Shown: positions 9,946-31,894 of the stretch, in pieces | How positions within the stretch are numbered: position 1 is the first letter of the stretch | How the letters are laid out: each line of letters opens with the position of its first letter | Source: a virus | Taxonomy: Duplodnaviria > Heunggongvirae > Uroviricota > Caudoviricetes | Strand: one strand, 5' to 3' | Virus record (IMG/VR): IMGVR_UViG_2531839662_000025 | Length of the DNA stretch: 58,745 nt | Program-made: the position numbers and the translations under genes | The notes under the pieces: model-generated | The model's input: only the letters and a program-made list of their open reading frames with translations | Told to the model about the DNA's origin: nothing | The model's database searches: none

Positions 9946-11895
9946 TCACCTTTTAAATGGAGAATACCCAACGTCATGGGTGATTTTCATAAAGGGATCG
10001 CCTGTTTTCGGCAAATCGATGACACGCATTCCCGGCGGCGCGTTGTCAAACGTCACCTTAAGTTCGCTGCGGGTTGCCGGTGACGATGAAAGGCTTAACA
10101 GTTGATTCCTTTCCAGTGATACATTCGGGATGTAGCGTTTATCTGGAGATAAATACCCATCACCACGTGGCATCTGCCATCCGGTCATGTCATAGACAAA
10201 ATCATGGAACTGTTTGCCCCACTCGTCGAACTTATCATTCAGACCAAATCCACTATTCAGTGCATCAGCCACAAAATTTTTAACAAGCCAGGGATGTTCT
10301 TTTTCAAACTCCTGCGCCATCATGCCCAGTTCAAGCAATCCACCAATCAGACTGATCTTACCAAGCCCCTTTAATTTCAGCGCCGTTTTTCCTGCCGCCG
10401 TTGTCCATTGATTCTGGGCGACTGTTGCTGCACGAATGGCTGCCACCGCTTTCACACCAATATACAGGGCAGAAACCGTTGCTATTGTTTTTACTGCCTG
10501 TTCCCATCCCCCCATTGCCCTGACAACCTGATCAACCTCCTGCCAGACTTTTTTCACAACCGGCCCGACCGTTTCCCAGTTGTCAATAATGAGATACGCC
10601 CCCGCTACCAGTAACGTAATGAGTCCCTTTGCCGGTGTCATATTCATCACGCTACCCATGATTTTTGTTATGCGTGTCAATGTGCCAATCGCCACGCCCA
10701 TCGTCAGTAATGCCGCACCAGTTTTCGCGATGGTTTTTACGACATCAGGATTTTCTCTGACAAACGTGCGCACTTCTTCCAGAAAAGGCTTCATCTCTTT
10801 TATGCCTTCATTGATTGAAGGCAGGAAGGTTTCCCCCAACGTGGAAGAAATCGCATTGATCTGGTTCTGCAGCAGCAACAACTGATTTTCCGTCGTCGCG
10901 GCACGGGCGGCATATTCTTTCTGCATTGAGCCGCCATACTGCTGCGCATCCGCCACACGATTAAAATTGGTTCGCAACAAATCCAGATTCGTGAGCAGCG
11001 GCGCAATGGCTCCCAGAGACTCCTTCCCGAACAGCGCATTAAGCACAGCAGCCTGTTTTTCTTTCGGCACTTTCGCCAGAGAATCCAGTACGTGCAGCAT
11101 GGCCCCACGGGCGTCTTTCTGCATATCCGCCGCCAGTTTTTTCGGGTCAATGCGCAACAGGCGAAGCGCTTTTTTCTGCGATTTGGTGGCAGAATTCCCC
11201 GCAGTCAGCGACAGCATAAAATTCTTTATCCCCGTCGCAGCAATTTCTGATTCCACCCCCATTCCGGCAATGGTTGCCCCCATTGCGGCAATCTCTCCGG
11301 AGGCCACACCCGCAACACTGCCTAAAGGGCCAATACGGGTCACAACATCAGAAATCTTTTTCGCACTCGCAGGACCGGTATTACCAAGATAGTTAATCTT
11401 GTCCGCAAGCCCTGCCACCTCTCCCTGTGTCAGTTTAAAGGCAGTGCGCCACTGTGCCATCATCTGACCGGATTCTTCCGCCGTGGTGTCAAAGGCCACC
11501 CCCATCTTCACGGCGTCGTCAGTAAACTGCATCAGCTCGTCACGGGCGATGCCAGCCTGACCACCCGCCGCCACGATTTCGGCGATACCTTCCGCCGACA
11601 TGGGCAGTTCTGTTGACAGGTCGCGCACCTGTTCCGTCATTGCCTTAAACGCTTCCGGCGTATCCAGACCATCCACCACTTTCCGGACATCCGCCATTTT
11701 TGATTCAAGGGCAATGGCAGATTTGACCGGGAGCGCCAGCGCCCCCAGTACTGCGGTTCCGGCACCCGCTGCGCCCAGTGACAGGCTGGCAAACTCCTTT
11801 TTAAAACCTTTCAGCTGGCGCTGCATTCCCTTCAGCGGTGCCGATACCTTATCCACGGCAGTGATGATCGCCTTCAGCTGAAAACTGTCAGCCAT
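9946..11895 (-). CDS. tail tape measure protein
   Basis: 649-aa Ala/Gly-rich ORF between tail chaperone and N-like gene. Confidence 0.8.
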   Translation of the reverse strand: MADSFQLKAIITAVDKVSAPLKGMQRQLKGFKKEFASLSLGAAGAGTAVLGALALPVKSAIALESKMADVRKVVDGLDTPEAFKAMTEQVRDLSTELPMSAEGIAEIVAAGGQAGIARDELMQFTDDAVKMGVAFDTTAEESGQMMAQWRTAFKLTQGEVAGLADKINYLGNTGPASAKKISDVVTRIGPLGSVAGVASGEIAAMGATIAGMGVESEIAATGIKNFMLSLTAGNSATKSQKKALRLLRIDPKKLAADMQKDARGAMLHVLDSLAKVPKEKQAAVLNALFGKESLGAIAPLLTNLDLLRTNFNRVADAQQYGGSMQKEYAARAATTENQLLLLQNQINAISSTLGETFLPSINEGIKEMKPFLEEVRTFVRENPDVVKTIAKTGAALLTMGVAIGTLTRITKIMGSVMNMTPAKGLITLLVAGAYLIIDNWETVGPVVKKVWQEVDQVVRAMGGWEQAVKTIATVSALYIGVKAVAAIRAATVAQNQWTTAAGKTALKLKGLGKISLIGGLLELGMMAQEFEKEHPWLVKNFVADALNSGFGLNDKFDEWGKQFHDFVYDMTGWQMPRGDGYLSPDKRYIPNVSLERNQLLSLSSSPATRSELKVTFDNAPPGMRVIDLPKTGDPFMKITHDVGYSPFKR

Positions 11896-11979
11896 GCTTC
11901 ATCTCCTCGTTAATGCGGACGGCCTCGGCTTCCAGTTCTGTAAACTGCGAAATAGCCACCCGTCGCAGCTCCAGTGGAT

Positions 11980-12309
11980 TCAGTTTCCAGAACCAGGCAA
12001 CATTGTAGAGTCGTTTCCGGAGGTGCTTCCCGTCTCCGACTGGGTAAAAAAACGCAGGATCTGCATGCTGGTCTTAAAAATATCCAGTTTTGCCATCTGC
12101 GCCGCCGATGAACGCGGGATCCCCGCCAGCAGCGGGATATATTTCAGTGCCACCTGGCTGTCCAGTTTTATACTGCCCTCACCGGAAATAATGAAAGGAA
12201 AACCCAGGGCCTCGATTTCGTCATACGTGGGTTCACGCAACTCCAGCACATGCAGCGTTTCGTTATGCGCTGTCACCGGTTTTTTTAAAACAATTTCTGT
12301 CACGCTCAT
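11980..12309 (-). CDS. tail assembly chaperone (Mu gp41-like)
   Basis: 109-aa ORF between tail tube and tape measure. Confidence 0.5.
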   Translation of the reverse strand: MSVTEIVLKKPVTAHNETLHVLELREPTYDEIEALGFPFIISGEGSIKLDSQVALKYIPLLAGIPRSSAAQMAKLDIFKTSMQILRFFTQSETGSTSGNDSTMLPGSGN

Positions 12310-12665
12310 TACTGATATCCTCCCTCTTCGCCGTGAAATTCAAGATCTGCCGTACCTTCTTCGGCATTATGGTTTGCTTCGCCATGCAGCCAGGCCGCCG
12401 AAAGCACATACACCATGCCGTTTGCCAGCTCGGCAGTAATCGTCATCTGGTCTGAGGTGGTAATTTTGTCGACCGGAAAATTTTTGGGCACTTTAAACGT
12501 GCCCTTAACGTAAGGTGACCGCCAGGTCTCCTTGTAATCCACATCACCAGCCATGCCGACGACATCATCCCGGACATTGGTGTTCATCGGCACTTCAATG
12601 CCACCTGTCAGCGATAACTGCTGACCATCCACTTTAAAAAAACAGGTTCCGGCGATCTTTGCCAT
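12309..12665 (-). CDS. tail tube protein
   Basis: 118-aa ORF immediately after sheath gene. Confidence 0.7.
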   Translation of the reverse strand: MAKIAGTCFFKVDGQQLSLTGGIEVPMNTNVRDDVVGMAGDVDYKETWRSPYVKGTFKVPKNFPVDKITTSDQMTITAELANGMVYVLSAAWLHGEANHNAEEGTADLEFHGEEGGYQ

Positions 12666-14161
12666 TATGCTGACTCCTCTGAATACTGGAGACGGAACTG
12701 GTTAACCACCGCAAAGACACGTAACTGGTTAACATAATCCGGCGGGAACAGCGTGTTCAGTCGGTTCGGGTTATCCGCATCACGTTCAACTATCAGATAC
12801 TGTTTAAACAGATCGTAATTTTCCACAATACCGGCACGCTCCATCTGACGATATGTCGCCAGAAGCTCCCCTTTGATAACGGCAGGAGTAACAATCGCCT
12901 GCCCAGGACCAAAACGGGTACCATCATTTGCCAGCTTGTGGCGTCCGTACTTGCTTGTGATGACCGATTTCAGTTTGCGAAGAACATATGCGCTGGTATG
13001 CAGTGTTTCACTGTCCAGATAGCTGTTGTCTGCCACGCCATATGCATTCTTTTTGTATGTGGTTACGGAACGCTGGATCCGCAACGTGCCGCCTTCCACA
13101 TAAGCCGTCGCCACGCCGTGAGATAAAAGGGTCTGCTGCTCTGTCATGATGAATCGCTTACCTTTCGGTGCCGGAAGCATCCCCACCAGTTCCCCCGTCT
13201 GTGTCGGACGGGCCGGATCATTGCGGATAAATACCGCTTCACGGGCAAGGCGACTGGCAACCAGTTCATCGACAGGCGACTGGGTTTCTTTTTCGTAACC
13301 GGCAAGCGTGATATGTTGCTGATTATGCATATCTCCGGCATCAACCAGCTCTGACAGCGTTCCCAGTTTTGCGGTATAGACATGCCCGTATAACTGGCGC
13401 GCATAACTCCAGCGACCGCTGCTGTCATTCATTTCGGTCATCATCATATTGATGGAGGCGGCATCGTTGAACGGCAGACCGATAAAGTCGAATGCCTCAT
13501 CGCCCATAGCAGCAACAGCGGCAGTAAGATCAGGCGCGCCACTACCCGCAGTTCCGGCTTCCGTCACAACCTGAAGCCCCGCAGGCAGAATCTCACCACC
13601 ACCAGAACCATAATAATTCAGGCAGACAGGCAACTCGTTACCATACAGCCCCTTATGGCGGGCAGTCAGCGTCACCACACCTGCATCAGATGACGCCGCA
13701 AACGGCAGGGTGATAACCCCGTTTACCGCTTCCTTAATCGCGGTGGCAACCGCAGTAGCATCATCGCCATTCACCACAGGCACCTGTACACGGTAGCGCC
13801 CGACATACAGACTCAGGGTGCCGCTTTCCTCTGCTTCTCCGGTAACTGTCACCCTGACCGTCGCCGCCGCCCCTTTGGCTTCCGGTACTGCAATAACATA
13901 CAGTTCACCGAAAGGATCTGTCTGACGGTAGACGTCAACCATACGCGCCAGCTGGCTCCCGGCCCCACAAATCTGACGGGCATAATCTGCCGACGGCATC
14001 AGCACCAGGCTGTTAACCTCAATGGCGGCATCGTTGCTGGCATGCCCGATCAATAATGCAGGCGCGCTGGTCACTGCTGTATTTGCCGCAGAATTGTCCA
14101 TCTCGGCGTAAAACAACGGCACCAGCGTATTCGACGGAACAGCACTAAAACTTATTGTCAT
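12665..14161 (-). CDS. contractile tail sheath protein
   Basis: 498-aa ORF; Mu L-like sheath size and position. Confidence 0.85.
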   Translation of the reverse strand: MTISFSAVPSNTLVPLFYAEMDNSAANTAVTSAPALLIGHASNDAAIEVNSLVLMPSADYARQICGAGSQLARMVDVYRQTDPFGELYVIAVPEAKGAAATVRVTVTGEAEESGTLSLYVGRYRVQVPVVNGDDATAVATAIKEAVNGVITLPFAASSDAGVVTLTARHKGLYGNELPVCLNYYGSGGGEILPAGLQVVTEAGTAGSGAPDLTAAVAAMGDEAFDFIGLPFNDAASINMMMTEMNDSSGRWSYARQLYGHVYTAKLGTLSELVDAGDMHNQQHITLAGYEKETQSPVDELVASRLAREAVFIRNDPARPTQTGELVGMLPAPKGKRFIMTEQQTLLSHGVATAYVEGGTLRIQRSVTTYKKNAYGVADNSYLDSETLHTSAYVLRKLKSVITSKYGRHKLANDGTRFGPGQAIVTPAVIKGELLATYRQMERAGIVENYDLFKQYLIVERDADNPNRLNTLFPPDYVNQLRVFAVVNQFRLQYSEESA

Positions 14162-14319
14162 GATTCTTTAGCCTTATCCTGTTTAACACGTACCACATCA
14201 CCCGCCGCTATACGGCGGAGCCAGTAGCTGTTTTCTTCCACATTTCGCCCGTCAGAAGGCAAAAGGTCTCCACGGGCAGGGTCAGGAACCGACCGCCCTT
14301 TCAGGGGTTTCACAAACAT
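14158..14319 (-). CDS. small conserved phage protein (53 aa, Mu gp38 position)
   Basis: Hand-translated ORF absent from track (under 60 aa): MFVKPLKGRSVPDPARGDLLPSDGRNVEENSYWLRRIAAGDVVRVKQDKAKES; stop overlaps sheath start (ATGA). Confidence 0.45.
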   Translation of the reverse strand: MFVKPLKGRSVPDPARGDLLPSDGRNVEENSYWLRRIAAGDVVRVKQDKAKES

Positions 14320-14328
14320 GAGGGACTC

Positions 14329-14892
14329 TTATTTCTGAGGGAAACTCATTTCCAGATGGTGCTCAAAGTCACCATCCGGGCCAGTACCAGGATCAATGTA
14401 ATCCACATCAATACTCAGCAGAGATAAATCCGGCAGAGCATTCACGTCCTCTGCCTGTCGCGTGTCTTCTTCCGTGATTTCATACTTCGCCGTAAAATCA
14501 AACTGGTAATACAGTTCGTAACGGTTCAGATCCAGCAGCGTGCCACCGGCATAAACAATCTCGCCCCCCTGCGGGTCCGGCATCCACCCAAGCAGGGCTT
14601 TCCAGAGTTCTCTACGGACATCATGAACGGCGTCATAGGCTGCCCACTGCCCTTTTTCATCACGCTCATTGCTGAGCACAACAATAACGGAGAAGCCTTC
14701 TGTCAAATCCTGCCAGTAATCGGTCTGTGATTTTTGTTCCCCCGGCGCATCGTCAGAGGGGACAACATAGGCAGCAGGCAGACGCAGTTTTCCGGCATCA
14801 GGGATCGCCTTAAACTGCGCTGCACCACCAACACGATTCTCAAAACGCGGGCATCGCTCACGCAACGCCGCAATTATTGTTGTCAGTTTCAT
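14329..14892 (-). CDS. virion/tail-completion protein (Mu gp37-like)
   Basis: 187-aa ORF between neck genes and sheath; function inferred from position. Confidence 0.45.
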   Translation of the reverse strand: MKLTTIIAALRERCPRFENRVGGAAQFKAIPDAGKLRLPAAYVVPSDDAPGEQKSQTDYWQDLTEGFSVIVVLSNERDEKGQWAAYDAVHDVRRELWKALLGWMPDPQGGEIVYAGGTLLDLNRYELYYQFDFTAKYEITEEDTRQAEDVNALPDLSLLSIDVDYIDPGTGPDGDFEHHLEMSFPQK

Positions 14893-15828: not shown

Positions 15829-16115
15829 CTGAAACTCATTGGCGTTTCCAGCTTCTCCACATCGGTGATCGTTGAGCGATTTTCATAAAAATGACTGACC
15901 AGCATCAGCATTGCCAGACGAACATCATCAGTCAGATGCATCCCGTCAGGATCGTCTTCCGGAATCGTCTCTTCCGGTGCATACAACTTCCTGTTCAGGT
16001 ATGTCTCTGTTCTTTTCTGTACCGCCTGTGCCAGCAGTTTCAGAAAATCGCCGTCACTGTACAAACCATCATCGAGCCGGAGGTGAGATTTAATTTCCTC
16101 TTCTTTCAGGAGCAT
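15792..16115 (-). CDS. head-tail connector protein (gp6-like)
   Basis: Track ORF 15792-16136 uses a TTG start; a strong AGGAGG then ATG at 16115 is the likelier start. Confidence 0.6.
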   Translation of the reverse strand: MLLKEEEIKSHLRLDDGLYSDGDFLKLLAQAVQKRTETYLNRKLYAPEETIPEDDPDGMHLTDDVRLAMLMLVSHFYENRSTITDVEKLETPMSFRWLAGPYRIVPL

Positions 16116-16161
16116 ATTTTCCTCCTGTGCCCGCAATTACGCGGGCACAAAAAAAACCGCA

Positions 16162-17385
16162 TTACGCAGCGGCTTTCTGGCGGGTTGCAGCCCCAATTTT
16201 CATCAGCTTAATCGCCTGAGAATCCACCAGCATACCGCCGGTTCGCTTGGTGGTATAAAAACCCACAAACGGTTTATTGGTGTACGGATCGCGCAGGATA
16301 CGGGTACCGATGCGATCAACGATGGTATAGCCACGTTTGAAGTTACCAAACGCAATGGCTTTTGCATCGGCAGCAATATCCGGCATCTGTTCATTCTCAA
16401 CGATGCCATACCCTGCCAGAGAAGAAGGCTGACCCAGCTCAATACCCGGACGCCACAGATAATTTCCGTCGTTATCCTTCAGCAGACGAATGGCAAACAG
16501 GCTGCTGTTGTTCATCATGAACTTCGCGCCGCTGCGATGCGCCTTGCGCAGGGTGTAAATCAGTTTAATGATCGCATCGGCAGTCACGCCGGAAGCCGCA
16601 CCGGAAGCAATGTGCTGAAGTTTGCCAAACGCACGGGTCTTGTCATCTTCATCGGTGGACTCGTAAGCCAGAAAACCTTTTGGTTTTTTGCTGCCGTCGC
16701 CACTGGTAAAGGCAATTTCTTCCTGTTCGGCAAATTCCAGCGCCAGCTCACTGTTGATCCAGTCTTCCACATTGAAGAAAGCGTCATCGAGCATTTTCTG
16801 GGTGGCCTGCGGGTTGCCGTAGATTTCCCCCATAAAGGGTTCAATCAGACCTAGTTTTGATGTGGCGGTTTCCGGACGAGCATCCGTTTCCCCCACCCAT
16901 CCGGACGTTGTGCCGCCCAGATTTACCAGTTTTTTATAATCCGAGCCACCGAGGGTGATCACAGTGGCTTCCTGGCGCATCACCACCTCATCTTTCAGCA
17001 ACGTCAGAATAGTGCGGTCCAGTTCTTCCGGAATGGCATAACCACCATCTTCATCATTGCCCACCTGCATCGCCTTACGCTCAAGCTCACGCAGGCCATC
17101 TTCACGCCCCTTACGCATAAATCCGATAAACGCTTCTTTATGTTCACCGGCAACTTTATTTTGCGTGCCGCCTGCCGGACGCTTGACTTCAGCCAGTTCA
17201 GCTTCAAGATCGCTTTTCAGATTTTCCAGTTCAGCCAGTTTTCCGTTGAGGGTTTCCACTTCACCAGCAAGTTTTCCCTTTTCCTGCTCGATCGCGTCGA
17301 TACGTTTGTCGTTTTTTGCCTTAAAATCGTCAAACTTCCGCTGCAACTCCTGCGCGACCTGTTCCACATCTTTAACATCAGCCAT
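16162..17385 (-). CDS. major capsid protein (HK97 fold)
   Basis: 407-aa ORF with N-terminal coiled-coil delta-like domain, downstream of prohead protease. Confidence 0.85.
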   Translation of the reverse strand: MADVKDVEQVAQELQRKFDDFKAKNDKRIDAIEQEKGKLAGEVETLNGKLAELENLKSDLEAELAEVKRPAGGTQNKVAGEHKEAFIGFMRKGREDGLRELERKAMQVGNDEDGGYAIPEELDRTILTLLKDEVVMRQEATVITLGGSDYKKLVNLGGTTSGWVGETDARPETATSKLGLIEPFMGEIYGNPQATQKMLDDAFFNVEDWINSELALEFAEQEEIAFTSGDGSKKPKGFLAYESTDEDDKTRAFGKLQHIASGAASGVTADAIIKLIYTLRKAHRSGAKFMMNNSSLFAIRLLKDNDGNYLWRPGIELGQPSSLAGYGIVENEQMPDIAADAKAIAFGNFKRGYTIVDRIGTRILRDPYTNKPFVGFYTTKRTGGMLVDSQAIKLMKIGAATRQKAAA

Positions 17386-17941
17386 TATTTTCTCCTGGTT
17401 AAAATTTAAGATTTTTCAGTGCATTCAGTGCGGCATCCACATCCTCAGCATCACGCAGGGATAAAGCGCCATATCCCCCGGCCATGAATGCTTTGGCCTG
17501 GGTTCGCGAGAGTCCAACATCGCGCAGGACCCGCTCAATAATTTTCTGATCAGGGATCTCCCCACGCGCCAGCGCATTTTTCACATCGCTGATGCGTGCT
17601 TCATCATTGGAAGGAAACGTCACCAGACTGACCTCCCACAGGTCGATCTCTTTCAGCAGGAATACCCCTTTTTCCCGGTCGTACTCCCAGTCTTTCAGGA
17701 TGTAGCCAATAGAAAGGCCGGTTAAAGAACCGGCCTTCATATGGGCATGTGCACGTTTTGCCAGGGGATCATCATCAACGAGTAATCGCCCCCTGACATA
17801 AAGCCCGACATCATCTTCTTTCATTTCGGTGTACACACCGATGGGCTCATCCATGCGGTGCTGCCAGAGCAACGCAGGCAGCGCCTTTTTTTCGCTCCAT
17901 TTCTGGAGTGTTGTGGTAAAGGCACCGGGGACCACCACATC

Positions 17942-18102
17942 ATCGTGGCTGTCCTTAACACCAAAAACAGAACCGTAACCTTACAAACTTCCCCGGAATC
18001 ATCGTACTAACTTCGTATAATGTATGCTATACGAAGTTATTACGATCGTGGCTGTCCTTAACACCAAAAACAGAACCGTAACCTTCAAACTCCCCGGAAT
18101 CA
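17942..18102. repeat. ~60-bp direct duplication of protease coding sequence flanking the lox site
   Basis: 17942-18001 and 18045-18102 are copies of the same sequence; upstream copy has two single-base insertions. Confidence 0.85.
18007..18040. other. loxP recombination site (33/34 match to P1 loxP)
   Basis: CTAACTTCGTATA-ATGTATGC-TATACGAAGTTAT: exact loxP spacer (inverted orientation) and right arm, one mismatch at outermost base of left arm. Confidence 0.85.
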
Positions 18103-18129
18103 CTGACGGATTTCAGGTTCAGCGGTATA

Positions 18130-19371
18130 TCAAGACGCTGTTTTGTCTGCATCTCCACTCTCCTTTTTCTTACCGTTGTCATCGCCAGCAGAGGGACTGG
18201 TGGTCATGTTCATCGGAGTCAGATACACATCACCGCCCGGTCGGGGATTCATATCCTCCAGATCACGGCAGTCATTAGGGGAATAAATCCCCCAGTTGAT
18301 CCCCGTGGCATACGCTTCAAAGCGGGATTTCATGTCGCCACGCAACAATGCTCCGGCATTAAATTTGGCGTAAAATTTTCCCTGCTTGCTCTCCCTGACC
18401 AGCCCTGTATTGATCCGCTGCTCAATACGGGTCAGATACGGCACAAGGGAATAGTTAATGAAACCAAGCCCCAGCTCTTCAATATTGTTGAAGGTGGCAC
18501 GATCGGTGTTCTGCACCATATGCAGCGGCACGCGGAACATGCGACAGATTTCTTCCAGCTGAAACTTGCGGGTTTCCAGGAACTGGCTGTCCTCGGCATT
18601 CAGTGCCACCGTTTTCCAGTCCAGCCCCATTTCCAGAATCATCGGACGATGAGAGTTTCCCAGCCCGACATGCCGTTCCTCAAAATCCTTTTTGATACGC
18701 GCATAAGCCTGGTCAGAAAGTTGTTGATCCGTACGCAACACACCGGATGTTACCGCGCCATTGCCAAACAATCTGGCACCATGCTCCTCGGTTGCCGCTG
18801 CCAGTGAAATGGCCTCGCGCGCATATGCAATGGGATTCAGACCGACAAGTCCATCCAGCGTCAGGGTACGCACATGCCAGATTTCATTCTGGGTCAGCAC
18901 ATCCACAGAACCATCCGGAAACGTCACCTGATAAACCGGCTGCCACTGGCTGTTCAGCTTCGGTTCCACACAGCCCGGATCTATCGGAAGAAGCTCCACC
19001 ACTTCCCCCAGTGCCTTTACCTTGTAGGCGTAAAAATTACCCCGCAGACACAGGCAGACGATAACCAGTTCCCAGAATTCCTGCGGCGTCATGTAGCCAT
19101 TGGGTTTTGCCGAAATCAGCTTATGCAGTCGTTCATCCACTGCCCGTGTTTTAAGAGTGCCGGTGATTTTGTAGAGGCTGCAGGGCAGCATACCAACAGA
19201 CTCCGCCAGCACCCTGACGCAGGAATACACCGCCGTCAGCCGCATGGCCCGCTGACTGCTGATCCGCTTTCCGGTATAGGTGTCGTATGACAACCCAAGT
19301 TCTTCCGCAAGTATCCCGGGCGTTGTGACGGGGGTATTATTTTTACGTTGAAAAAGCCCCTGGAAAAACAT
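18130..19371 (-). CDS. portal protein (HK97 family)
   Basis: 413-aa ORF upstream of protease and capsid genes. Confidence 0.85.
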   Translation of the reverse strand: MFFQGLFQRKNNTPVTTPGILAEELGLSYDTYTGKRISSQRAMRLTAVYSCVRVLAESVGMLPCSLYKITGTLKTRAVDERLHKLISAKPNGYMTPQEFWELVIVCLCLRGNFYAYKVKALGEVVELLPIDPGCVEPKLNSQWQPVYQVTFPDGSVDVLTQNEIWHVRTLTLDGLVGLNPIAYAREAISLAAATEEHGARLFGNGAVTSGVLRTDQQLSDQAYARIKKDFEERHVGLGNSHRPMILEMGLDWKTVALNAEDSQFLETRKFQLEEICRMFRVPLHMVQNTDRATFNNIEELGLGFINYSLVPYLTRIEQRINTGLVRESKQGKFYAKFNAGALLRGDMKSRFEAYATGINWGIYSPNDCRDLEDMNPRPGGDVYLTPMNMTTSPSAGDDNGKKKESGDADKTAS

Positions 19372-19564: not shown

Positions 19565-20290
19565 TTAAAGCGAGCGAATACCAACGCTGACCAGATGCTC
19601 AGACAGATCCGGCTCCGGTTCACCGCCATTGACCAGCATCCGGCTCATTGCTGTAAACATCGCAACAGGACCGTCGATTTTGGCTTCCGGCGTGGATTTA
19701 TTCGGGAAGATATTGTTGTTTTTGTCCGGTTTCACCGTAACGTTAGACATCATCCAGTTCATGACCGGGTGATTGCTGTGGTGGAAACGTCCGGCATAGA
19801 CCAGTGATTCCGTTTCCTTCATGGCCTCTGACAGATTGCGGACCGTCTGCGGAACTTCCACCAGCGGTATACCTTCTTCAGCCAGCGCCAGACTGAACTG
19901 CATTGCGCTCCACGGGTCAAATCCCAGTTCCCTGAGGTTTTCACCGCCAATCCATTCCAGTAAGTCACTTTTTATCTGAGCATGATCGATAACATCACCA
20001 TCCGTCAGGATGAGCTTATCCATCTCCGCCCACTTCCGGTAAAGTTCTGCCTGCTGCCGCGAGCATCGCTCCAGCCGTCCTTCCGGAAGCCAGAATTTAA
20101 AATCAGCATGAACATGTCCGTTATCGGTTCGCCAGAGTTTTGCCGCCGCACAGATATCAATCTTATGAGCAAGGTCGACGCCGACCCACATGGGATATGT
20201 TTTCAGCTCATGTTGTGGAGCAATGTATTCGCACTTCTCCCACTTAATCATATCCATCCAGGCAGATTCGGCAGTGACCCACACATTCAT
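19565..20290 (-). pseudogene. terminase large subunit, C-terminal (nuclease) fragment of the host prophage
   Basis: 241-aa ORF aligns by eye with the C-terminal third of the intact TerL at 20817-22478; N-terminal two thirds lie 15 kb away at 35283-36303. Confidence 0.8.
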
Positions 20291-20293: not shown

Positions 20294-20309
20294 TTTGGTA
20301 AGAATATTT
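20294..20309. repeat. putative att core (left junction of satellite)
   Basis: TTGGTAAGAATATTTC; imperfect direct repeat of TTGGTAAAAAAATTC at 35276-35290, located at the terL break point. Confidence 0.5.
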
Positions 20310-20376
20310 CAAGTTTTTTAAAATCACCTGTATATCAATCATTTAACATGAAAAAACAGTCTTTATAAATCATCGA

Positions 20377-20397
20377 GCAATACACAGCGCAATACAC
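20377..20397. repeat. arm-type repeat GCAATACACAGCGCAATACAC
   Basis: Near-identical tandem motif also at 35125-35145 just inside the other satellite end. Confidence 0.5.
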
Positions 20398-20582
20398 GTA
20401 TCTGTATTGTTTTAATGCTGATACACACCGTTTTTTGATACAGTGATTCGACCTACCATCGCGAAGCATTTTTTATTTCTTGTGTGTAACAATCTGACGA
20501 GGTGAGCACTCAAAGAGATAAGAGGCAGTAGAAATTTCGATCCCCCCTGAATGCAATTTTTCGTATATATATACAAAACAGT

Positions 20583-20741
20583 GCGGGTTATGCGGGTTAG
20601 CGGGTTATCTTCGCGTGCTAAGTATTTTTTACTCTTTAATATCAATACGTTAAAAAACAACGTATCTAAATATCAGCCAGAATGTAACCCGCAAGACATT
20701 CAAAATAACCCGCAAACACCACTCAAATAACCCGCAAAAAC
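20583..20741. repeat. iteron cluster (GCGGGTTAT motif), three direct plus three inverted copies around an AT-rich spacer
   Basis: Direct copies at 20584, 20593, 20602; inverted copies at 20686, 20706, 20728. Confidence 0.7.
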
Positions 20742-20816
20742 ATCCCTGAAAGTGGGTGCCGATAATACTGAAAATTTATTCCATTAAATGAGCATTATCC
20801 TCTCTCATCCATTCCG

Positions 20817-22478
20817 TTACACACCATCAAACGTCGCAAGCCGCTCTTTGTGGCTGTCGCTCATATCGAATGCAAATTCCTCATGCTCTGCCTGGAATGT
20901 GCCAAACGCCATCAGCGCCGCAACGCTCGGGTCTATCTTGTTGGATGATTTTTTCTTGTTCGGCTTGATATTGGCGTTCGCGTCACTCTGCATCACAACA
21001 TTACTCATTGACCAGGCCAGCACCGGATCACCACGATGCACAATCACCTTCCGGTTAACAAAAACTTCGAACGATTTCGCCGCCGGACTGAAACGAAGGT
21101 ACGTTTGCGGGAACGGCTCCACCTCAAATCCTGCGCCCTGTAGCTGCGTCCTCAGGTGCGTGGCGTTCCATGTATCGAAACCCACCAGCCTGATATTGAA
21201 ATTCTCTGCATCCGCCATGATGTCATCACGGATACGGTCATAATCAATGCAGTCACCCGGTGTTGTGCGTATCCAGCCCGCCTTTACCCACTGGCGATAG
21301 ATGGCGCGGTTTTTATTGGCGGGGTTCTGTAGCTGAAATTCCGGCAGATAGTGACGGGAAACCAGCATAATCTTTTTACCGACCGGAAAGGCATAGCACA
21401 CGCTGGAAATATCGCTGGTTGATGATAAGTCCAGCCCCGCGTAGCACTCCTGCCCGTATAAATCCGCCTCCGCGAACGTTCCGGCGCACTCCGCCCATGC
21501 ACCGTTACCCATCCACGGCGTGGCCCCCTGACACCAGATATTGAATCGCTTGGTGAGCATTTCCACCCACTGCGACGGAATACCCCGCGCTTTCTGGATG
21601 GTTGAGGCCAGTTTTTCACGATCGACGGAAACATCGATATTGGGATTCGCCTTTATCCACATCGCCGGATCGTCAACCTCGCTTTCATCATCCAGCTCGT
21701 AAATCAGCACGAACATGGATTCGTTCACCTCTTCACCATCCAGTATCTGGCAGCAATAGTCGTAGTGTTGTTTACAGGCTGAAACAACGTTGCTCCCCGA
21801 TGTGGTGATGGCAAATAATAACCCCTCCGGACGCGCCCCCATTCCCAGTTCAAGCGCGGAATAAACCCCGTTGTCAGGGTGCAGGTGATATTCATCCACA
21901 ATGGCAAGACTCGGGTTTGTACCTTCAATGGTTGCCGCTTTTGCTGCCAGTGGCTTTAACAGGCTGTTGGTTTTCGGGTGTATCACCTTGTGTGCCTGAA
22001 TATTTACCCGCTTTCGCAACGGTCGGGATAAAAGGCACATCTGACGCGCATCATCAAACACGATCCGCGCCTGATCACGACTCACGGCGGCGGTGTAAAT
22101 ATCCTGCTGCCCGTTTTCCATAACCAGAAACCAGTTAGCCAGGATAGCGGCGACCGTGGATTTGGCATTTTTTCGCGGCACTTCAATGAATGCGCTGGTG
22201 TATTTGCGCCGTCCGGTGGCCTTAACCTTAAAGCCCAGGATGCACGCAAAGGCGAACTGCTGCCACGGCTCCAGCTCAATGGGGCTACCGCGCATTGCGC
22301 CTTTTACGTGCGGACACACCCTGGAAAAGGCAATAAACCGCTCCACGACCTCCGGATCGAACGTGTAAAGGGGGTTTTCAAGGTCAGAAAAATACCGTTT
22401 AACGGCCTGTTTCAGTCGTTTACAGGCCGTAATTTTGCCGTTTTTTACGCCTTCTGCGTACTCATGCCAGGCGGTCAA
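20817..22478 (-). CDS. terminase large subunit (satellite-encoded, intact)
   Basis: 553-aa ORF with ATPase and nuclease halves. Confidence 0.85.
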   Translation of the reverse strand: MTAWHEYAEGVKNGKITACKRLKQAVKRYFSDLENPLYTFDPEVVERFIAFSRVCPHVKGAMRGSPIELEPWQQFAFACILGFKVKATGRRKYTSAFIEVPRKNAKSTVAAILANWFLVMENGQQDIYTAAVSRDQARIVFDDARQMCLLSRPLRKRVNIQAHKVIHPKTNSLLKPLAAKAATIEGTNPSLAIVDEYHLHPDNGVYSALELGMGARPEGLLFAITTSGSNVVSACKQHYDYCCQILDGEEVNESMFVLIYELDDESEVDDPAMWIKANPNIDVSVDREKLASTIQKARGIPSQWVEMLTKRFNIWCQGATPWMGNGAWAECAGTFAEADLYGQECYAGLDLSSTSDISSVCYAFPVGKKIMLVSRHYLPEFQLQNPANKNRAIYRQWVKAGWIRTTPGDCIDYDRIRDDIMADAENFNIRLVGFDTWNATHLRTQLQGAGFEVEPFPQTYLRFSPAAKSFEVFVNRKVIVHRGDPVLAWSMSNVVMQSDANANIKPNKKKSSNKIDPSVAALMAFGTFQAEHEEFAFDMSDSHKERLATFDGV

Positions 22479-22818
22479 GCTCGTCCTCTTCCTCTGTTTC
22501 CGGTGGATTTCTGCGGCGACTTACCGGGTCAAAACCCAGCAAAGAAGCCATTTTGATCATTATTCTTTCCGCGTCAGCCTTTGCGCTCAGGGCGGGGTTT
22601 CTGCTCTCGCTGCCCTGACTGTTAACAATGCTGAACCCGCGCGTGGCAAGGTCTTCGACGGCTTTGCGGTATATGGAGTAGTTAACGCAATACAGCTCCA
22701 GATTGCTCCAGTCGGCGGGGGTAAGGTCTTCCCGTCCGGAAAGCTGGCGCGATTTTTCCTTCCACTGCCTGACCGCGATTTCATCCAGGTAAGCGGGGGC
22801 TTTTGGTGGTCTTGCCAT
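22462..22818 (-). CDS. terminase small subunit (P27-family-like)
   Basis: Track ORF 22462-22959; likely start MARPPKAP at 22818; upstream of TerL. Confidence 0.65.
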   Translation of the reverse strand: MARPPKAPAYLDEIAVRQWKEKSRQLSGREDLTPADWSNLELYCVNYSIYRKAVEDLATRGFSIVNSQGSESRNPALSAKADAERIMIKMASLLGFDPVSRRRNPPETEEEDELDRLA

Positions 22819-23106
22819 GTTCTTTTTTCGCCCAATTATTTTCAAAAAAAATCCCGTGCACAAAAATTTGAGGAGGCGGTCGGTGTCCGGCAGGGACGGT
22901 TTCGTCCTGAAAACCTCCCCCACCCCCTCTGACAGCCTCACCAGCGATTGCGAAAACATTCCATGACCTCGCGGTCACGGTCGGTTAATCGCTTCGCTGT
23001 GGTGCGTTCTGTGCGCCCTGTCCTGTTAGCTTTGTGCCCTGTCTCCTGTGTCTTCCATAAGTCACGCTGCCTTATCAGTCCACGTATCAGCCTGTTTTGC
23101 TCCTGT

Positions 23107-23547
23107 TCAGTCATCATCGCCATACATCCAGTCGTTACGATGTGCCGCCCGTTCTTCCTGCTCGCGATACATACCCGCCTTACGGTTCGCTTTCGTGGCT
23201 GGATCTTCCCGTGTCGTCTTACGGTTGTGGCACGTCTGGCACAATGCCTGGTGGTTCCACTCAGGCCAGAAGAGAACATCACCGCCGCCATTGATGGGAA
23301 TGATGTGATCCACCACAAGAGCTGGCGTATAAATCCCCTTAGCCAGACAACGCACGCATAACGGGTTTTTGCTCAGGTACAGGGCGCGGTATTTGTCCCA
23401 CTGTCGGGAATACCCGCGCGCGCGGCGGTGTCCCCGTCTGGCATCCTCTGCACGCCATGCAGCCCGCCTGTGCTCTTCACACTTGCCGGACTTCACGCGC
23501 TTATTACAGCCCGGCTCAGTGCATCGCCTTAATGGTTGCCACGGCAT
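23107..23547 (-). CDS. HNH endonuclease (packaging-associated)
   Basis: 146-aa ORF with Cys and His motifs, adjacent to TerS as in HK97-like cos phages. Confidence 0.75.
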   Translation of the reverse strand: MPWQPLRRCTEPGCNKRVKSGKCEEHRRAAWRAEDARRGHRRARGYSRQWDKYRALYLSKNPLCVRCLAKGIYTPALVVDHIIPINGGGDVLFWPEWNHQALCQTCHNRKTTREDPATKANRKAGMYREQEERAAHRNDWMYGDDD

Positions 23548-23846
23548 CAGTACACCCCCACATCACGATAAACCGACCAGAGCGCAGAAATAGCCATAGG
23601 CAGTTCAGACTGCTCCACTGGTGAAACTGCTTCCCTGTTCTCGTACAGGAAAGCGATGTACATCAGGCAACCAACACGCATTGCCGGGGTAAATTCCAGC
23701 CCGTCTTCAAAACGTTTCCCGATATGCTTCTGGCAGGCTTCCAGCGCCGCATCGGTATACATTTTCAGAAGTTCGCCTTCTCCGGAAAAGTCATCAAGGC
23801 GAAGATGTGCCCTGACCTCATCAGGTGTAATTTTTTCTTCACTCAT
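23547..23846 (-). CDS. head-tail connector protein (gp6-like)
   Basis: Track ORF 23547-23927; likely start MSEEKIT at 23846. Confidence 0.6.
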   Translation of the reverse strand: MSEEKITPDEVRAHLRLDDFSGEGELLKMYTDAALEACQKHIGKRFEDGLEFTPAMRVGCLMYIAFLYENREAVSPVEQSELPMAISALWSVYRDVGVY

Positions 23847-25053
23847 CTTTTTCACCTTTAATTTCCACCGTCTGCTTCCATGCCTGGCTGAATTCGTCGC
23901 CACCTTCGCGCGGCGGCATCCCCTCACGTTCGCGGGCTTCGTTCGGATTCATGATCCCGTTCTTAATCCCTTTCTCATACGTGGCGTAACGCTCGGTAGG
24001 GGTGGCGCGCAGTAAATCGGCTGAATCAAACTCAACCAGATAACGGGTACCAGGTACGGGAGAAGCCACCAGCAAAGCGGCCTTGATTTGCTGTTCGAAG
24101 TTCGCCAGCCACGGACGCATTGTCATAGTCAGAAACGCGCGGCTTGCCTCACTGAAATTGCTGTAGGTGCTGTTGCTGTATTCCTGAAGAAAAATCGGCG
24201 ACACGTTGAACATACGGGCAATGTCTTCAATGGAGAAGCGACGGGAGGCCAGCCATTCCGCATCCTGGTTACTCATCCCCAGTTGCCTGTAATCCATGCC
24301 CCCTTCAAGGATTGGCGTTTTTCCGGCATTTTTCGCCCCCTTATAGCGTTCCAGAGCATCTAATGCCTGTTTACCTTTCACGCCGTCCAGCCATTCGCCT
24401 GACGTGATAATCCCTGCCGCCATCATGCCATCTTTCATAATGCTGGCTCCGTGGCGCTGTTGAGCAAGGCCAAGCCCCAGCGCCTCACGGCAAATCGTGA
24501 CAGGGGAGCGCCCCAGAAAGCCATCATCCGAGGCATAGCGGAGATGCAGAACTTCTTCCTGTAAATACGTGCGTACCGTTCCTGTATAGGGTTCGGTGAT
24601 GGTATAGCGGTATTTGTGTGCGCCTGTGCGTTCCGGTACAACACACCCCGGCGCATAAGGATGAAGTGATTTTGGCTGACCGTCCCGCCCCCACTCAATA
24701 ACCGCATAGGCGTTACCGTTCAGCAGGCAGTGACGCATCATTGTGCGTTTAAACTGGTAAGGTGTCTGGCACGAATTAGGCTGCTCATTCAGCAGAATAT
24801 CGACCGGGTGACTGTCCAGCCATTCCCGCGCCTCCCTGCCCTTGTCATTGCGTACCAGATACAGATAACACGGCATCGTGGCCACCGCCTCAGCGATGAC
24901 AGAAACCGCGTTCATCACAGCAGGCAATGATTCAGCCGTCCCGGCAGAAACATATTCTCCGGATCCGGTATTCGGTACGCCGGACAGCGCCAGAAAATCA
25001 TCAATGGACAGGTTACGCAGATCGCTTTTTTTACGACTAAAAGGCCACCACAT
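23839..25053 (-). CDS. portal protein (satellite-encoded)
   Basis: Track ORF 23839-25143; likely start at 25053 abutting protease stop. Confidence 0.8.
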   Translation of the reverse strand: MWWPFSRKKSDLRNLSIDDFLALSGVPNTGSGEYVSAGTAESLPAVMNAVSVIAEAVATMPCYLYLVRNDKGREAREWLDSHPVDILLNEQPNSCQTPYQFKRTMMRHCLLNGNAYAVIEWGRDGQPKSLHPYAPGCVVPERTGAHKYRYTITEPYTGTVRTYLQEEVLHLRYASDDGFLGRSPVTICREALGLGLAQQRHGASIMKDGMMAAGIITSGEWLDGVKGKQALDALERYKGAKNAGKTPILEGGMDYRQLGMSNQDAEWLASRRFSIEDIARMFNVSPIFLQEYSNSTYSNFSEASRAFLTMTMRPWLANFEQQIKAALLVASPVPGTRYLVEFDSADLLRATPTERYATYEKGIKNGIMNPNEAREREGMPPREGGDEFSQAWKQTVEIKGEKDE

Positions 25054-25054
25054 A

Positions 25055-25615
25055 TCACAACCCCGCCAGTTCAGCCCAGCGATGACGATTATTTCCTGTC
25101 GGGCGTAATTCAGGGTGCTGTGCAAACAACGAACGGTGGGCAATCTCCACGCCGGATTCGGGATAAGCAGGCATCGACGTTATCGTGATTTCACGGAGTT
25201 CTGCGGCGGTAACAGTGCGCAGATACGGTTTTTGCGCGATATTCCACTCTTCGCATAATGCGCGAAAGCCAAAGCTCATTCCTGTAATGTCGCCACGCTC
25301 CACCAGCGTAAGCACATCTTTTCCAAGCTGGGTATCAGGCGGTGTCAGTTCAAAACGTAGCCCGGTGTTGTCCTCAGTCAGTACCAGTGTTCCGGATTTG
25401 GTGCGCCCCAGCAGTCGGGTATAGTCATGCTCATACAGGCAGCGCACATCATTACCCGCCGCCAGATAGTCAGCAAAAGCCCCCGGCGTGAACTGTTCGC
25501 GGAATTCGTCCCAGATAATTTCTGAAAGGCTGTTCCAGCGAACGGCATAACCCACCAGTTTTTTATCGCTGGCGGTCAGTTCAGATGTACGGATTTCAAA
25601 ATCGGTATTTTGCAT
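25055..25615 (-). CDS. prohead protease (HK97 family, satellite-encoded)
   Basis: Track ORF 25055-25831; likely start MQNTDFEI at 25615. Confidence 0.75.
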   Translation of the reverse strand: MQNTDFEIRTSELTASDKKLVGYAVRWNSLSEIIWDEFREQFTPGAFADYLAAGNDVRCLYEHDYTRLLGRTKSGTLVLTEDNTGLRFELTPPDTQLGKDVLTLVERGDITGMSFGFRALCEEWNIAQKPYLRTVTAAELREITITSMPAYPESGVEIAHRSLFAQHPELRPTGNNRHRWAELAGL

Positions 25616-25664
25616 CGGTGTACTCCATAAAGCTGAAAAAGGAGGCCGAAGCCCCCTTTGCTCA

Positions 25665-26810
25665 TTACTTGCCAGCCTGAATTTCCAGAATCTTGATGGC
25701 GTTCGAATCCACCACACCACCGCCCAGATATTTCTGGGTATAGATGTTAATGAATCCAGGTTCGCTGAAATCCAGACGGGTACGCGTACCGGTTTCATGG
25801 TCAACGATGAAATAACCGCGCTTAAAGTCACCTACTGCAATCACACCGTCCGGCATAAATTCCAGATATTCAACCGGAAGCCCCAGCAGAGAATCAGGAT
25901 CACCAGCCTGTAAACGATCGCGCCAGATGTAATCACCAGTGGCATTTTTCAGTTTTTGTGCGGAGGCGGCTGTATTTGAGTTCATCACCCATACAGCTTT
26001 TTTGCGGTACTTATTGCGCAGCGTAAATTTCAGGTCAATCAGCATGTCGGCGCTGAGACTGCCAGTAACTTTTTTCGTCTGGAGCGTACCGAAAGGACGG
26101 GTTTTGTCGTTATCCGCAGTGCGCGGAAAAGCCAGGAAACCTTTAGCTTTTTTCTCGCCATCACCGGAAACCAGATCCGTTTCTTCGGTATCAACGAAAG
26201 TGTCGCCAATTTCAGAAGATAACCAGCCCATAATATCGACTTCGGAAAAATCGATAATTTCCTGAGTGGTTTTCGGGTAAGCGTAGATCGGATACAGGCG
26301 GATACTGACTTCATTCAGTTTTGGTGTTGCCGTCTGGTTACGTGCCGCACCTTCTTCGCCGTGTTCAACGACCGCACCCCCGGCAGAAACCAATTGCTTA
26401 AATTCATTGCTGTGAATGGTTTTAACAGTACAGATTTTACGCATCACCGATTCATCAGAAAGCTGACGCATAATTTCTCTGTTCAGTTCCGGGATAACCG
26501 TATAACCACCATCAGCCGGGACACTGCCGGACAGGTTGCGGGTTTCCCCGGTCAGAATGTAAGAGCGCAGTTCGTCTTTGGTTATTTTCTCTTCGACGGA
26601 AACACCAGGCTGGTTACGTTCTTCATCAGCCACAGATTCGAGGCGGGAAATTTCTGTGTCGAGGGAATCGGCTTTTGCACGCAGTTCATCAAACTGTTTG
26701 CCCTCGTCATCGTTCAGGCTGCGGTTTTCACTGTCGGCTTTTTCCAGCAGGGATCGCATCTGGTTTTTCAGGGCGGTTTTTTGCTGGCGGAGTTCGATTA
26801 ATTTCTTCAT
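25665..26810 (-). CDS. major capsid protein (HK97 fold, satellite-encoded)
   Basis: 381-aa ORF with N-terminal coiled-coil; related in pattern to the host prophage MCP. Confidence 0.85.
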   Translation of the reverse strand: MKKLIELRQQKTALKNQMRSLLEKADSENRSLNDDEGKQFDELRAKADSLDTEISRLESVADEERNQPGVSVEEKITKDELRSYILTGETRNLSGSVPADGGYTVIPELNREIMRQLSDESVMRKICTVKTIHSNEFKQLVSAGGAVVEHGEEGAARNQTATPKLNEVSIRLYPIYAYPKTTQEIIDFSEVDIMGWLSSEIGDTFVDTEETDLVSGDGEKKAKGFLAFPRTADNDKTRPFGTLQTKKVTGSLSADMLIDLKFTLRNKYRKKAVWVMNSNTAASAQKLKNATGDYIWRDRLQAGDPDSLLGLPVEYLEFMPDGVIAVGDFKRGYFIVDHETGTRTRLDFSEPGFINIYTQKYLGGGVVDSNAIKILEIQAGK

Positions 26811-27104
26811 GAAGGTTTTCTCGTATTGGTTAAGATTCAGGACGTGAAACCAACACGGAGGGAGCGCCGCCCGACACTCTCGGCATCTCGCAGATCAACC
26901 CGGCATCGCGCAGGGGGTCAGGCGGCATTGTGGCGGCTCACGTCTGAGTGCCACACGCCAACATATACATAAAAATCAGTATGTAAACATCAGCCAGAAT
27001 CACCGAACAACCTGGAACAACCACGAACAAATAATTTACAAAACCTGAAAAAATAAATAAGCTGTTCCGTACATTTTCTGCTCGTCAATCAGGAGGAACG
27101 AACT

Positions 27105-27578
27105 ATGTCAGAAAATGAACTGAAAAAAGCAATGTTCATTCAGCAACGATTGCAGATTCTCCACCTTGGTAAACACTATGATGAGTTCAGCGATTCTTAC
27201 GTGTATGCCTGGGAGGCAGATGTTTATCCTTTCTTGCAGGATGGCGACGGAAGTATTCCTACTCGCCCACATGAAATTTACGAAGAGTTTTTCGGCACAT
27301 CTAAAAACAAAGCTAAAAAGATATACGATCGTCTGTGCAAAGCCTGGCACGACCGGGAGGCGCTCACATTCTATAAACTAGAAAGTGAATATGGTGTAAC
27401 AAGTAGCAGCATGCACGGATGGACACGAAGTGATTTACTTCACATTTGCCGCTATCTGTATCTTGAGGGGTGTTTCGATAAAGATTTCTGGGAAACATTA
27501 CTGGAAAACGGAAAATGCCCAAGCGAAGCACTTTACCTTAGCGATGAATTTAATCGCGATACAGAGATCGACTTCTAA
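27105..27578 (+). CDS. hypothetical protein (accessory cargo gene of the satellite)
   Basis: 157-aa ORF on the opposite strand to all flanking satellite genes, lower GC, own terminator; no family recognised. Confidence 0.6.
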   Translation: MSENELKKAMFIQQRLQILHLGKHYDEFSDSYVYAWEADVYPFLQDGDGSIPTRPHEIYEEFFGTSKNKAKKIYDRLCKAWHDREALTFYKLESEYGVTSSSMHGWTRSDLLHICRYLYLEGCFDKDFWETLLENGKCPSEALYLSDEFNRDTEIDF

Positions 27579-27580
27579 AA

Positions 27581-27614
27581 ATAATGGCCTGGAAAATACC
27601 AGGCCATTATTATT
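27581..27614. terminator. bidirectional rho-independent terminator
   Basis: 10-bp stem AATGGCCTGG/CCAGGCCATT with T/A runs on both sides, between convergent genes. Confidence 0.6.
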
Positions 27615-27902
27615 CTACCGTTTCACGGGATCACGCATTCTGCGCCTTATTTTCCACAGATATTCGATCATCGCTTCCACCTGCTCACGGTTGGTTGCGA
27701 AAATTTCCCCGGTCAGTGAGCTACGCAGAAAATCATGATGATCCACAAAAAATAACGCATCGGAAGAAAGCAGCCGGCGATATTTTTTTACTGTCGTGGT
27801 TTCCAGATCATCAAAACCATGAAACTTTTTATGTTGCTGAACTTCTTCAAATGTCACAGGCATGTTTCCTCCTGCTACCACGATACCAGAAACAGTTAAC
27901 AA
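27615..27902 (-). CDS. hypothetical protein
   Basis: Track ORF; likely start MPVTFEEV at 27863. Confidence 0.4.
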   Translation of the reverse strand: MLTVSGIVVAGGNMPVTFEEVQQHKKFHGFDDLETTTVKKYRRLLSSDALFFVDHHDFLRSSLTGEIFATNREQVEAMIEYLWKIRRRMRDPVKR

Positions 27903-28204
27903 CCGTTATCAATTATCCCCTTTTTTTTCGGGTAGTTCCTGAACATCTCACCGCCAGGTTTCTGTAAGCCCATCCCGGTATGTGTGCGGTTTATGGCCTC
28001 TTTCAGTATTCCGAAATTATCCGGTATGACTGGTTGGCGCGCTGCCTTACGGATACATTCCGCGCGACGCTTTGCCACCTGTTCGCGCTCCTTGTCAGTG
28101 CTCACCAGCCACATAACATCAGCCCAACGTGCCGCCGCTCTCCGGTACAGCCCTTTAGCCTCCAGTTCTTCCGCTTTGCTGTCTTTAATCATGCTGTACC
28201 TCAC
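27896..28204 (-). CDS. PerC-family transcriptional activator homolog
   Basis: About 100 aa containing AEELEAKGLYRRAAARWADVM, the PerC/Pch signature as I recall it. Confidence 0.55.
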   Translation of the reverse strand: MRYSMIKDSKAEELEAKGLYRRAAARWADVMWLVSTDKEREQVAKRRAECIRKAARQPVIPDNFGILKEAINRTHTGMGLQKPGGEMFRNYPKKKGIIDNGC

Positions 28205-28207
28205 TGC

Positions 28208-28633
28208 TTAAAACGGTATCCCGTCCCCGTACGGATCATCGTGCTGGCCTGTCTGTTGTTTTGCCCTGTTCAGTGCGTCAGTAGCCTGGCCCTGCTGGCC
28301 TTTTTTGCCGCCCGGTCGCGCCGTTCGCGCACTGATTACGCTGTCTGCGATGACCTGCCAGCCCTGCCGCATTTCGCCGTTCTGGCCTGTCCACTGGCTT
28401 ACCTGCATGTTACCCGCCACACTCACCAGTTCGCCTTTCTGGTGTTTTGCCAGTGCATCGGCCTGTCTGCCAAACGCCAGGACGGATAACCACATCGTCG
28501 CCGTTCCGTCATCTGCCTGGCTGCACGGCAGGGGAACCGCCATACTCGCCATAGCCATTTGTGTCCCCTTGCTGGTGGTCTTTAACTGCGGGTCAGCCAC
28601 CAGCCGCCCGTAAGCCGCTATCTGTGCTGTCAT
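28208..28633 (-). CDS. single-stranded DNA-binding protein-like
   Basis: 141-aa ORF with Gly/Gln-rich linker and acidic C-terminal tail ending DGIPF. Confidence 0.55.
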   Translation of the reverse strand: MTAQIAAYGRLVADPQLKTTSKGTQMAMASMAVPLPCSQADDGTATMWLSVLAFGRQADALAKHQKGELVSVAGNMQVSQWTGQNGEMRQGWQVIADSVISARTARPGGKKGQQGQATDALNRAKQQTGQHDDPYGDGIPF

Positions 28634-28696
28634 GCTGTCTGTTCTCCGGTTTTAACGTTGATTGTTACGCTTGTTTACACCCTTACGGTGAAATTC

Positions 28697-28820
28697 TGCG
28701 GGTTATAATCGCACTTTTGCGGGTTATAACTGCCGTTTTGCGGGTTACGTGCGGGTTATTGATTTCCTTTTTATTCATACAGTTAATGCACTTATACACA
28801 GGATAACCCGCATAACCCGC
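28697..28820. repeat. putative satellite replication origin: GCGGGTTAT iterons at 21-bp spacing plus inverted copies
   Basis: Direct copies at 28697, 28718, 28739, 28751; inverted at 28803, 28812; immediately downstream of primase. Confidence 0.65.
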
Positions 28821-28843
28821 AACTTTTCACCTCACACAGGGGG

Positions 28844-31260: not shown

Positions 31261-31265
31261 GGTTT

Positions 31266-31493
31266 TTATTCCGCGTTTATTTTTTTATCGTGAATTTCGA
31301 TCGCTTTATTTAATTCGACGATTACCGTATCGAGTAATGAAATAAACGCACCAGCAAGATTAGATTCACGTTCATCTTCCGGCGCATCACTTAAACCATC
31401 AAGCCAGATAAGCAATATTTGCCGCAAACATTCACTGTTAGTCAGTGCGTTTTCTGCATGGCTCATTGATTTTAAATAACTGTCATCATGCAT
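31266..31493 (-). CDS. hypothetical protein
   Basis: 75-aa acidic ORF. Confidence 0.4.
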   Translation of the reverse strand: MHDDSYLKSMSHAENALTNSECLRQILLIWLDGLSDAPEDERESNLAGAFISLLDTVIVELNKAIEIHDKKINAE

Positions 31494-31867: not shown

Positions 31868-31894
31868 TAAAGTCCATTTAAGTGAGGTGCATCA

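Follow-up and report, generated by a model that had tools for sequence, protein, structure and literature searches.

We attribute 103 extra bases in the prohead protease gene of an E. coli prophage to a sequencing-library linker that was left in the assembly, and we put the probability that this segment is such an artefact and not bacterial DNA at roughly 95%. The window, by which we mean the whole 58,745-nucleotide stretch that was analysed (IMG/VR record IMGVR_UViG_2531839662_000025), contains within this gene a loxP-like site that lies between two copies of a short protease segment. A preliminary description of the same DNA had read this arrangement as the trace of laboratory engineering in a prophage that cannot mature its capsids. 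The insert almost certainly belongs to the well-known class of adapter and linker contamination and, as such, is neither a biological feature nor anything new as biology.

A search of the window with the loxP consensus returned a single match, located on the plus strand at positions 18007-18040 and containing one mismatch, and no match was returned by any of 100 shuffled versions of the window. The two 13-nt arms of this site are the only lox arms present. The site is covered by an inverted repeat (18001-18019 and 18028-18046, 19 nt, 95% complementary) and is bracketed by two exact direct repeats, one of 41 nt (17942-17982 and 18045-18085) and a second of 12 nt (17990-18001 and 18091-18102). 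Combined, the direct repeats give a left copy of 60 nt and a right copy of 58 nt, with the left copy containing two 1-nt insertions that are an A at 17983 and a T at 17989/17990. The features of this region are as follows:

17399-18152, minus strand: prohead protease gene of the HK97 family (Peptidase_S78) with an apparent interruption; its truncated ORF matches Pfam PF04586
17942-18001, plus strand: spurious 60-nt version of the 58-nt protease segment on the left; seen from the repeats and missing from UMNF18 prophages A and B in a three-way alignment
18002-18044, plus strand: Roche 454 Titanium paired-end/mate-pair circularisation linker, TCGT-loxP-TACG of 42 nt plus an extra C (18007), 43 nt in total; located as an exact string
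18007-18040, plus strand: loxP-like 34-mer composed of a 13-nt arm, the 8-nt spacer ATGTATGC and a 13-nt arm; consensus match with 1 mismatch
18045-18102, plus strand: authentic copy of the 58-nt segment, continuous with the remaining gene; identical to UMNF18 prophage B

Read from position 17942, the window consists of ATCGTGGCTGTCCTTAACACCAAAAACAGAACCGTAACCTTaCAAACtTCCCCGGAATCA (60 nt, the left copy), followed by TCGTAcTAACTTCGTATAATGTATGCTATACGAAGTTATTACG (43 nt, 18002-18044) and then by ATCGTGGCTG...CCTTCAAACTCCCCGGAATCA (58 nt, 18045-18102), after which the normal continuation CTGACGG resumes. The authentic copy differs from UMNF18 prophage A by 1 SNP (18090). These observations bear out the structural part of the preliminary description, which had reported a loxP-like 34-mer with an exact spacer and an exact right arm, bracketed by a duplication of about 60 bp whose upstream copy carries two 1-bp insertions.

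The match extends beyond loxP itself. Specifically, the 42-mer formed by TCGT, loxP and TACG, which reads TCGTATAACTTCGTATAATGTATGCTATACGAAGTTATTACG, is matched by window positions 18002-18044 at 42 of 42 positions with one 1-nt insertion, and this same string, longer than loxP alone, is shared by the genomes of K-12 GM4792 (CP011343.2 and CP011342.2) and of strain S56. The 42-mer and its reverse complement have been listed as an adapter that is screened out of mate-pair libraries (PMC5199103), and the 42-mer has been named the '454 double-stranded linker' that is used for circularisation (PMC7038657). The Roche 454 paired-end kit employs Cre-LoxP recombination with the junction marked by a linker (PMC3253782). 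By our own calculation, the 8 bases that flank an arbitrary engineered lox site would be TCGT and TACG by chance with p ~1.5e-5. The mismatch in the left arm that had been reported earlier is present as called, but it is better read as a 1-nt insertion of the C at 18007 (TCGTA^TAACTTCG), since taking this C as an insertion brings the window into agreement with a known synthetic linker over its full 42 nt. The ATCGTA/TACGAT palindromic extensions that had been described around the site are also present, but they are composed of the TCGT/TACG ends of the linker together with one or two coincidental genomic bases.

When compared with related genomes, the net insertion amounts to 103 nt, with the relatives being exactly 103 nt shorter at the same point. 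The insertion starts 108 nt (36 codons) past the start codon (18152, minus strand) and destroys the reading frame, so that alignment to relatives and translation both agree with the earlier statement that a net insertion of about 103 bp breaks the protease frame 36 codons in. Across the protease/portal region, the best 30 of 1052 covering complete E. coli genomes each align as two pieces, spanning ~1198 nt as compared with 1301 in the window, and the insert junction is covered by no record among 5,426 complete E. coli genomes. The window's junction string likewise has no match in IMG/VR viral contigs. Deletion of 17942-18044 yields a 651-nt ORF that codes for a 216-aa protease with 0 differences from UMNF18 WP_001193625.1 and with two residues that differ from the second UMNF18 copy. 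Because removal of the 103 nt restores the protease, this gene gives no evidence of a capsid-maturation defect, and the proposal that the prophage is unable to mature capsids does not hold. The protease gene is almost certainly intact in the bacterium.

The truncated ORF (17399-17938, minus strand) codes for 179 aa and is identical to the deposited protein EII47121.1, the cluster representative of which has 216 aa. It occurs at one place in the public collection, which is contig AFAB02000119.1 (926,719 bp) of assembly GCA_000194535.2 from E. coli 2.3916 (taxid 869688), where the window corresponds to approximately 389,666-448,410. The public record AFAB02000119.1 itself carries the 43-mer, which indicates that the feature belongs to the deposit.

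The engineering explanation holds that recombineering introduced a floxed cassette into the protease gene, from which Cre then excised it, or that a lox landing pad was placed there, with the prophage protease inactivated as a result. It draws on the presence of a single lox-like site in a functionally sensible target gene whose frame is broken, on the absence of the insert from other complete E. coli genomes, and on the fact that errors in oligonucleotide synthesis could, in principle, produce 1-nt insertions. However, the lox core is flanked by only 4+4 non-genomic nt that are exactly the 454 linker ends, with no cassette or priming-site sequence, and the extra C sits within a lox arm. No second lox arm or other mark of engineering is present across the 58.7 kb, and the DNA comes from a WGS draft whose strain is named in the style of a collection. 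The target also exhibits a 58/60-nt direct duplication in a circularised, end-to-start order, and recombineering with adjacent arms yields, to our knowledge, no 58-nt direct duplication. The window resembles a single-lox recombineering scar in having one lox site in a disrupted gene and differs from such a scar in that there are no template-derived priming sites, in that the target is duplicated and not deleted or precisely inserted into, and in that the flanks are those of a sequencing linker. The identical string is moreover found in assemblies of uncultivable endosymbionts and of many wild bacteria, as detailed below. We consider laboratory modification very improbable on these grounds. What survives of the earlier interpretation is that man-made loxP DNA foreign to the prophage is present, possibly as an assembly that includes engineered DNA; a Cre scar or landing pad in a modified genome is not what the evidence favors. 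Physical presence of the 103-nt insert in E. coli 2.3916, by whatever route, is just as improbable in our estimation. If the insert were real, then the deposit of an ordinary isolate would contain a lox site that had been introduced, deliberately or accidentally, into the head-protease gene of a prophage, and its agreement with the ends of the 454 linker would have to be explained by coincidence or by reuse of that oligonucleotide.

A natural source also deserves consideration, given that loxP is natural on P1-like phage-plasmids, that these are common in E. coli, and that 679 plasmid places were matched. A P1-type loxP could on this account have been captured by the prophage or recombined into it by Cre. 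The site is like the loxP of phage P1 in its 13-8-13 core, its exact spacer and its exact right arm, but it is unlike it in that the window flanks are synthetic, in that no cre or other P1 DNA is nearby, and in that the left arm is disrupted by the inserted C. Specifically, loxP of the P1 type occurs naturally next to cre and c1, in the context ...CCCTTAAG-loxP-TAGGTCC..., whereas the window has TCGT and TACG at these positions; the P1-type flanks CTTAAG/TAGGTC observed in pSA186_4 likewise differ from those of the window. A tblastn search of the window gave no Cre homologue (best E = 0.72), and P1 sequence is likewise missing next to the site, with the plasmid matches confined to the 35-nt core. 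We also know of no case in which Cre recombination duplicates 58 nt of its target. The probability of this origin is vanishingly small in our judgment, and we reject a natural P1 source on the basis of the flanks together with the lack of cre.

Recurrence of the linker in other assemblies was addressed with an exact scan that allowed an optional extra base and that covered one genome per bacterial or archaeal species, with all counts given among the matches listed. Among these matches, the linker was found at no fewer than 138 sites (at least 138) in 120 stretches from at least 9 unrelated assemblies, and 121 of the 138 listed sites are located within 300 nt of a stretch end. The numbers of linker copies, among the matches listed, are as follows:

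Ca. Paracaedibacter symbiosus (amoeba endosymbiont; JQAK01): at least 55
Rickettsia endosymbiont of Diachasma alloeum (MAG; DYDT01): at least 42
Legionella tunisiensis (CALJ01): at least 21
Litoribacter populi: at least 9
Kitasatospora cheerisanensis: at least 3
Leptospira yanagawae: at least 2
Leptospira noguchii: at least 1
Streptococcus macacae: at least 1
Paenibacillus sp. PAMC 26794: at least 1

Since these organisms are of kinds that are not engineered with Cre/lox, their possession of the string indicates that it is a library reagent. The occurrence of the same element in assemblies of unrelated wild or uncultivable bacteria, in some cases with the same flanking duplication, is contrary to the engineered-genome reading.

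Two of these other cases are particularly instructive with regard to the duplication. In K-12 GM4792 (CP011343.2), a 178-nt duplication surrounds the linker within ygeH (insert of ~187 nt). This duplication-linker-duplication form of ygeH is present in no other record, the sibling assembly CP011342.2 included; the other top ygeH matches exhibit a locus that is 229 nt shorter, with 3316 genomes covering at least 80% of the query. In Litoribacter populi XAAS-A1 (VMKN01 scaffolds 4 and 5), a unit composed of an 81-87-nt fragment plus the linker is repeated four times in tandem. The GM4792 and Litoribacter cases together indicate that very short inserts do pass from such libraries into consensus sequences. 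They are like the window in that direct copies of local sequence lie on both sides of the linker, and unlike it in involving other genomes and other duplication lengths, in having error-free linkers and, for Litoribacter, in having longer arrays.

Additional observations were made on these records. The Litoribacter arrays (positions 147-557 of stretch L078 and 194-622 of stretch L079) give the impression of repeated sequencing passes around one small circle, and an inverted copy of the fragment adjoins one of them. Among RefSeq E. coli genomes labelled 'complete', the 454 linker is present in CP011343.2 (L002, 1501-1542), in CP011342.2 (L003, 1505-1546) and in S56 CP010242.1 (L004, 1501-1542). 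These sites are located inside or beside genes, namely ygeH, a glycosyltransferase gene of the waa cluster and a position near rarD, with annotated pseudogenes as the outcome. The sibling GM4792 assemblies have the linker at different loci.

The layout of the flanks in the window suggests how the linker could have been incorporated. Once the left flank has run to ...GGAATCA, the sequence on the other side of the linker starts over from a point 58 nt upstream (ATCGTGG...), in the same strand orientation. Judged from its sequence, this order is that of the two ends of one circularised 58-bp insert and not that of homology arms. During preparation of 454 paired-end libraries, loxP-bearing adaptors are added to the genomic fragments, which are then circularised by Cre, leaving one 42-nt TCGT-loxP-TACG linker between the two ends of each fragment. 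A read spanning such a junction runs from the 3' end of the fragment through the linker to its 5' start, and is normally split at the linker by software. In the mechanism that we propose, an insert of 58 bp (ATCGTGG... to ...GGAATCA) would have generated one or a few reads in which the linker contained a base-call insertion, the extra C, and a linker with this extra C may have been neither recognised nor trimmed. The left copy (17942-18001) would then represent the 3' end of the library insert running into the linker, and the authentic copy (18045-18102) its 5' start. With both halves of the read mapping to the same spot, each could overlap genuine reads on its side, giving a consensus of the form 'X - linker - X'. 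Uptake of the linker may have been favored by a difficult repeat context: the closest relative has two copies of this region with 98-99.5% identity to each other, and the window sequence is a mosaic of the two. We infer that AFAB02, a WGS draft of the 2011-12 era, was built with a 454 paired-end library, and a single short-insert read is the route that we prefer, with some reservation.

The distribution of errors can be considered in relation to this route. Departures from the expected sequence occur at three places (17983, 17989/90 and 18007); all are 1-nt insertions and fall within 25 nt of each other. They are confined to the stretch for which coverage would come only from one or a few linker-bearing reads, and the authentic right copy is free of errors. 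Insertion-only errors fit pyrosequencing better than they fit Illumina sequencing. In a low-power test against the 454 flow order (TACG), a single spurious flow could account for each of the three on either strand. Note that the T insertion (AAAC-T-TCC) has another possible source, namely a mixture of AAATTCC and AAACTCC, the alleles of the two prophages.

The same linker could also have entered the assembly from a different library or by a different route, either through an Illumina mate-pair library made with the 454 linker or through a chimera of two linker-containing reads that overlapped via the 42 nt. We view this as possible but unlikely. Use of the 454 linker in modified Illumina mate-pair protocols is on record (PMC7038657). 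In the closest relative, two nearly identical copies of the region exist, and the window mixes sequence from both, which would place an assembler under stress; the blended alleles considered above for the second insertion would also be congruent with such a route. Against this, it would take a coincidence for two independent reads to end and start at a distance of only 58 nt, unless such pairs are favored by layout constraints, and the insertion-only profile is in general better matched by pyrosequencing chemistry.

The window agrees with contamination by the Roche 454 GS FLX Titanium linker in having the same 42-nt sequence, in the 'fragment end - linker - fragment start' order and in the recurrence of the string in unrelated assemblies. 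It departs from typical linker contamination in three respects. The window copy contains one extra C; it is located within a gene inside a 926-kb contig and not at a contig or scaffold end; and its insert is unusually short (58 bp), such that it resembles a local tandem duplication and not a chimeric join. The second of these respects counts against an artefact, given that most linker remnants are found at ends. A further point against it is that a circle of 100 bp (58 + 42) is near the usual lower size limit for circularisation by Cre. This leaves some doubt about how the short-insert molecule arose, yet inserts of 81-87 nt and of ~187 nt passed in other assemblies.

Recognition of the linker averts a false claim that a public E. 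coli record represents an engineered genome with a prophage defective in capsid maturation. It also identifies a correctable error in AFAB02000119.1, consisting of the spurious insert and the truncated protein EII47121.1 derived from it. For genome scans, a simple rule follows, which is that loxP with TCGT...TACG flanks is the 454 linker and not a Cre/lox scar. Many assemblies of reference level still contain the 454 linker, and K-12 GM4792 and S56, which are labelled complete, are among them.

The prophage itself is composed of an HK97-type head module, a Mu/P2-like contractile tail with baseplate, and a lambdoid early region. Its large-terminase gene is divided into two halves on the minus strand (19565-20290 and 35110-36303) by a ~15-kb integrase-bearing element (~20302-35282), with a junction core of approximately TTGGTAA. 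This element codes for its own TerL, TerS, HNH protein, portal, S78 protease, major capsid protein, DUF927 primase and Int, a gene content reminiscent of a PICI-like satellite that forms capsids. UMNF18 prophage A has this arrangement too, which indicates that the arrangement is probably real, while terL of prophage B is intact. If the prophage is defective at all, then the split of terL, and not the protease gene, would be the real lesion.

Relative to UMNF18, the window is a block mosaic of prophages A (L001/L126) and B (L125). It is B-like from 1 to ~10750, A-like from 11368 to 14377, B-like from 15950 to 16537, and A-like from 16663 on. The left chromosomal flank (yecD/aspS) is also that of prophage B, and the right end of the window has the satellite of prophage A together with A's yccA-site integrase. 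This mosaic could have arisen by a genuine recombination or inversion event involving two prophages in inverted orientation, or it could be a repeat that was mis-resolved in one of the assemblies. The linker was also considered as a switch point between UMNF18-like prophage alleles, and this was rejected with both of its sides being prophage-A-like. Finally, the tail-terminator gene (PF23840, 187 aa; 14329-14892, minus strand) is intact in the window and is 'frameshifted' in both UMNF18 copies, each of which is without one base at two positions (window 14422 and 14616); these frameshifts are probably homopolymer errors in the UMNF18 record.
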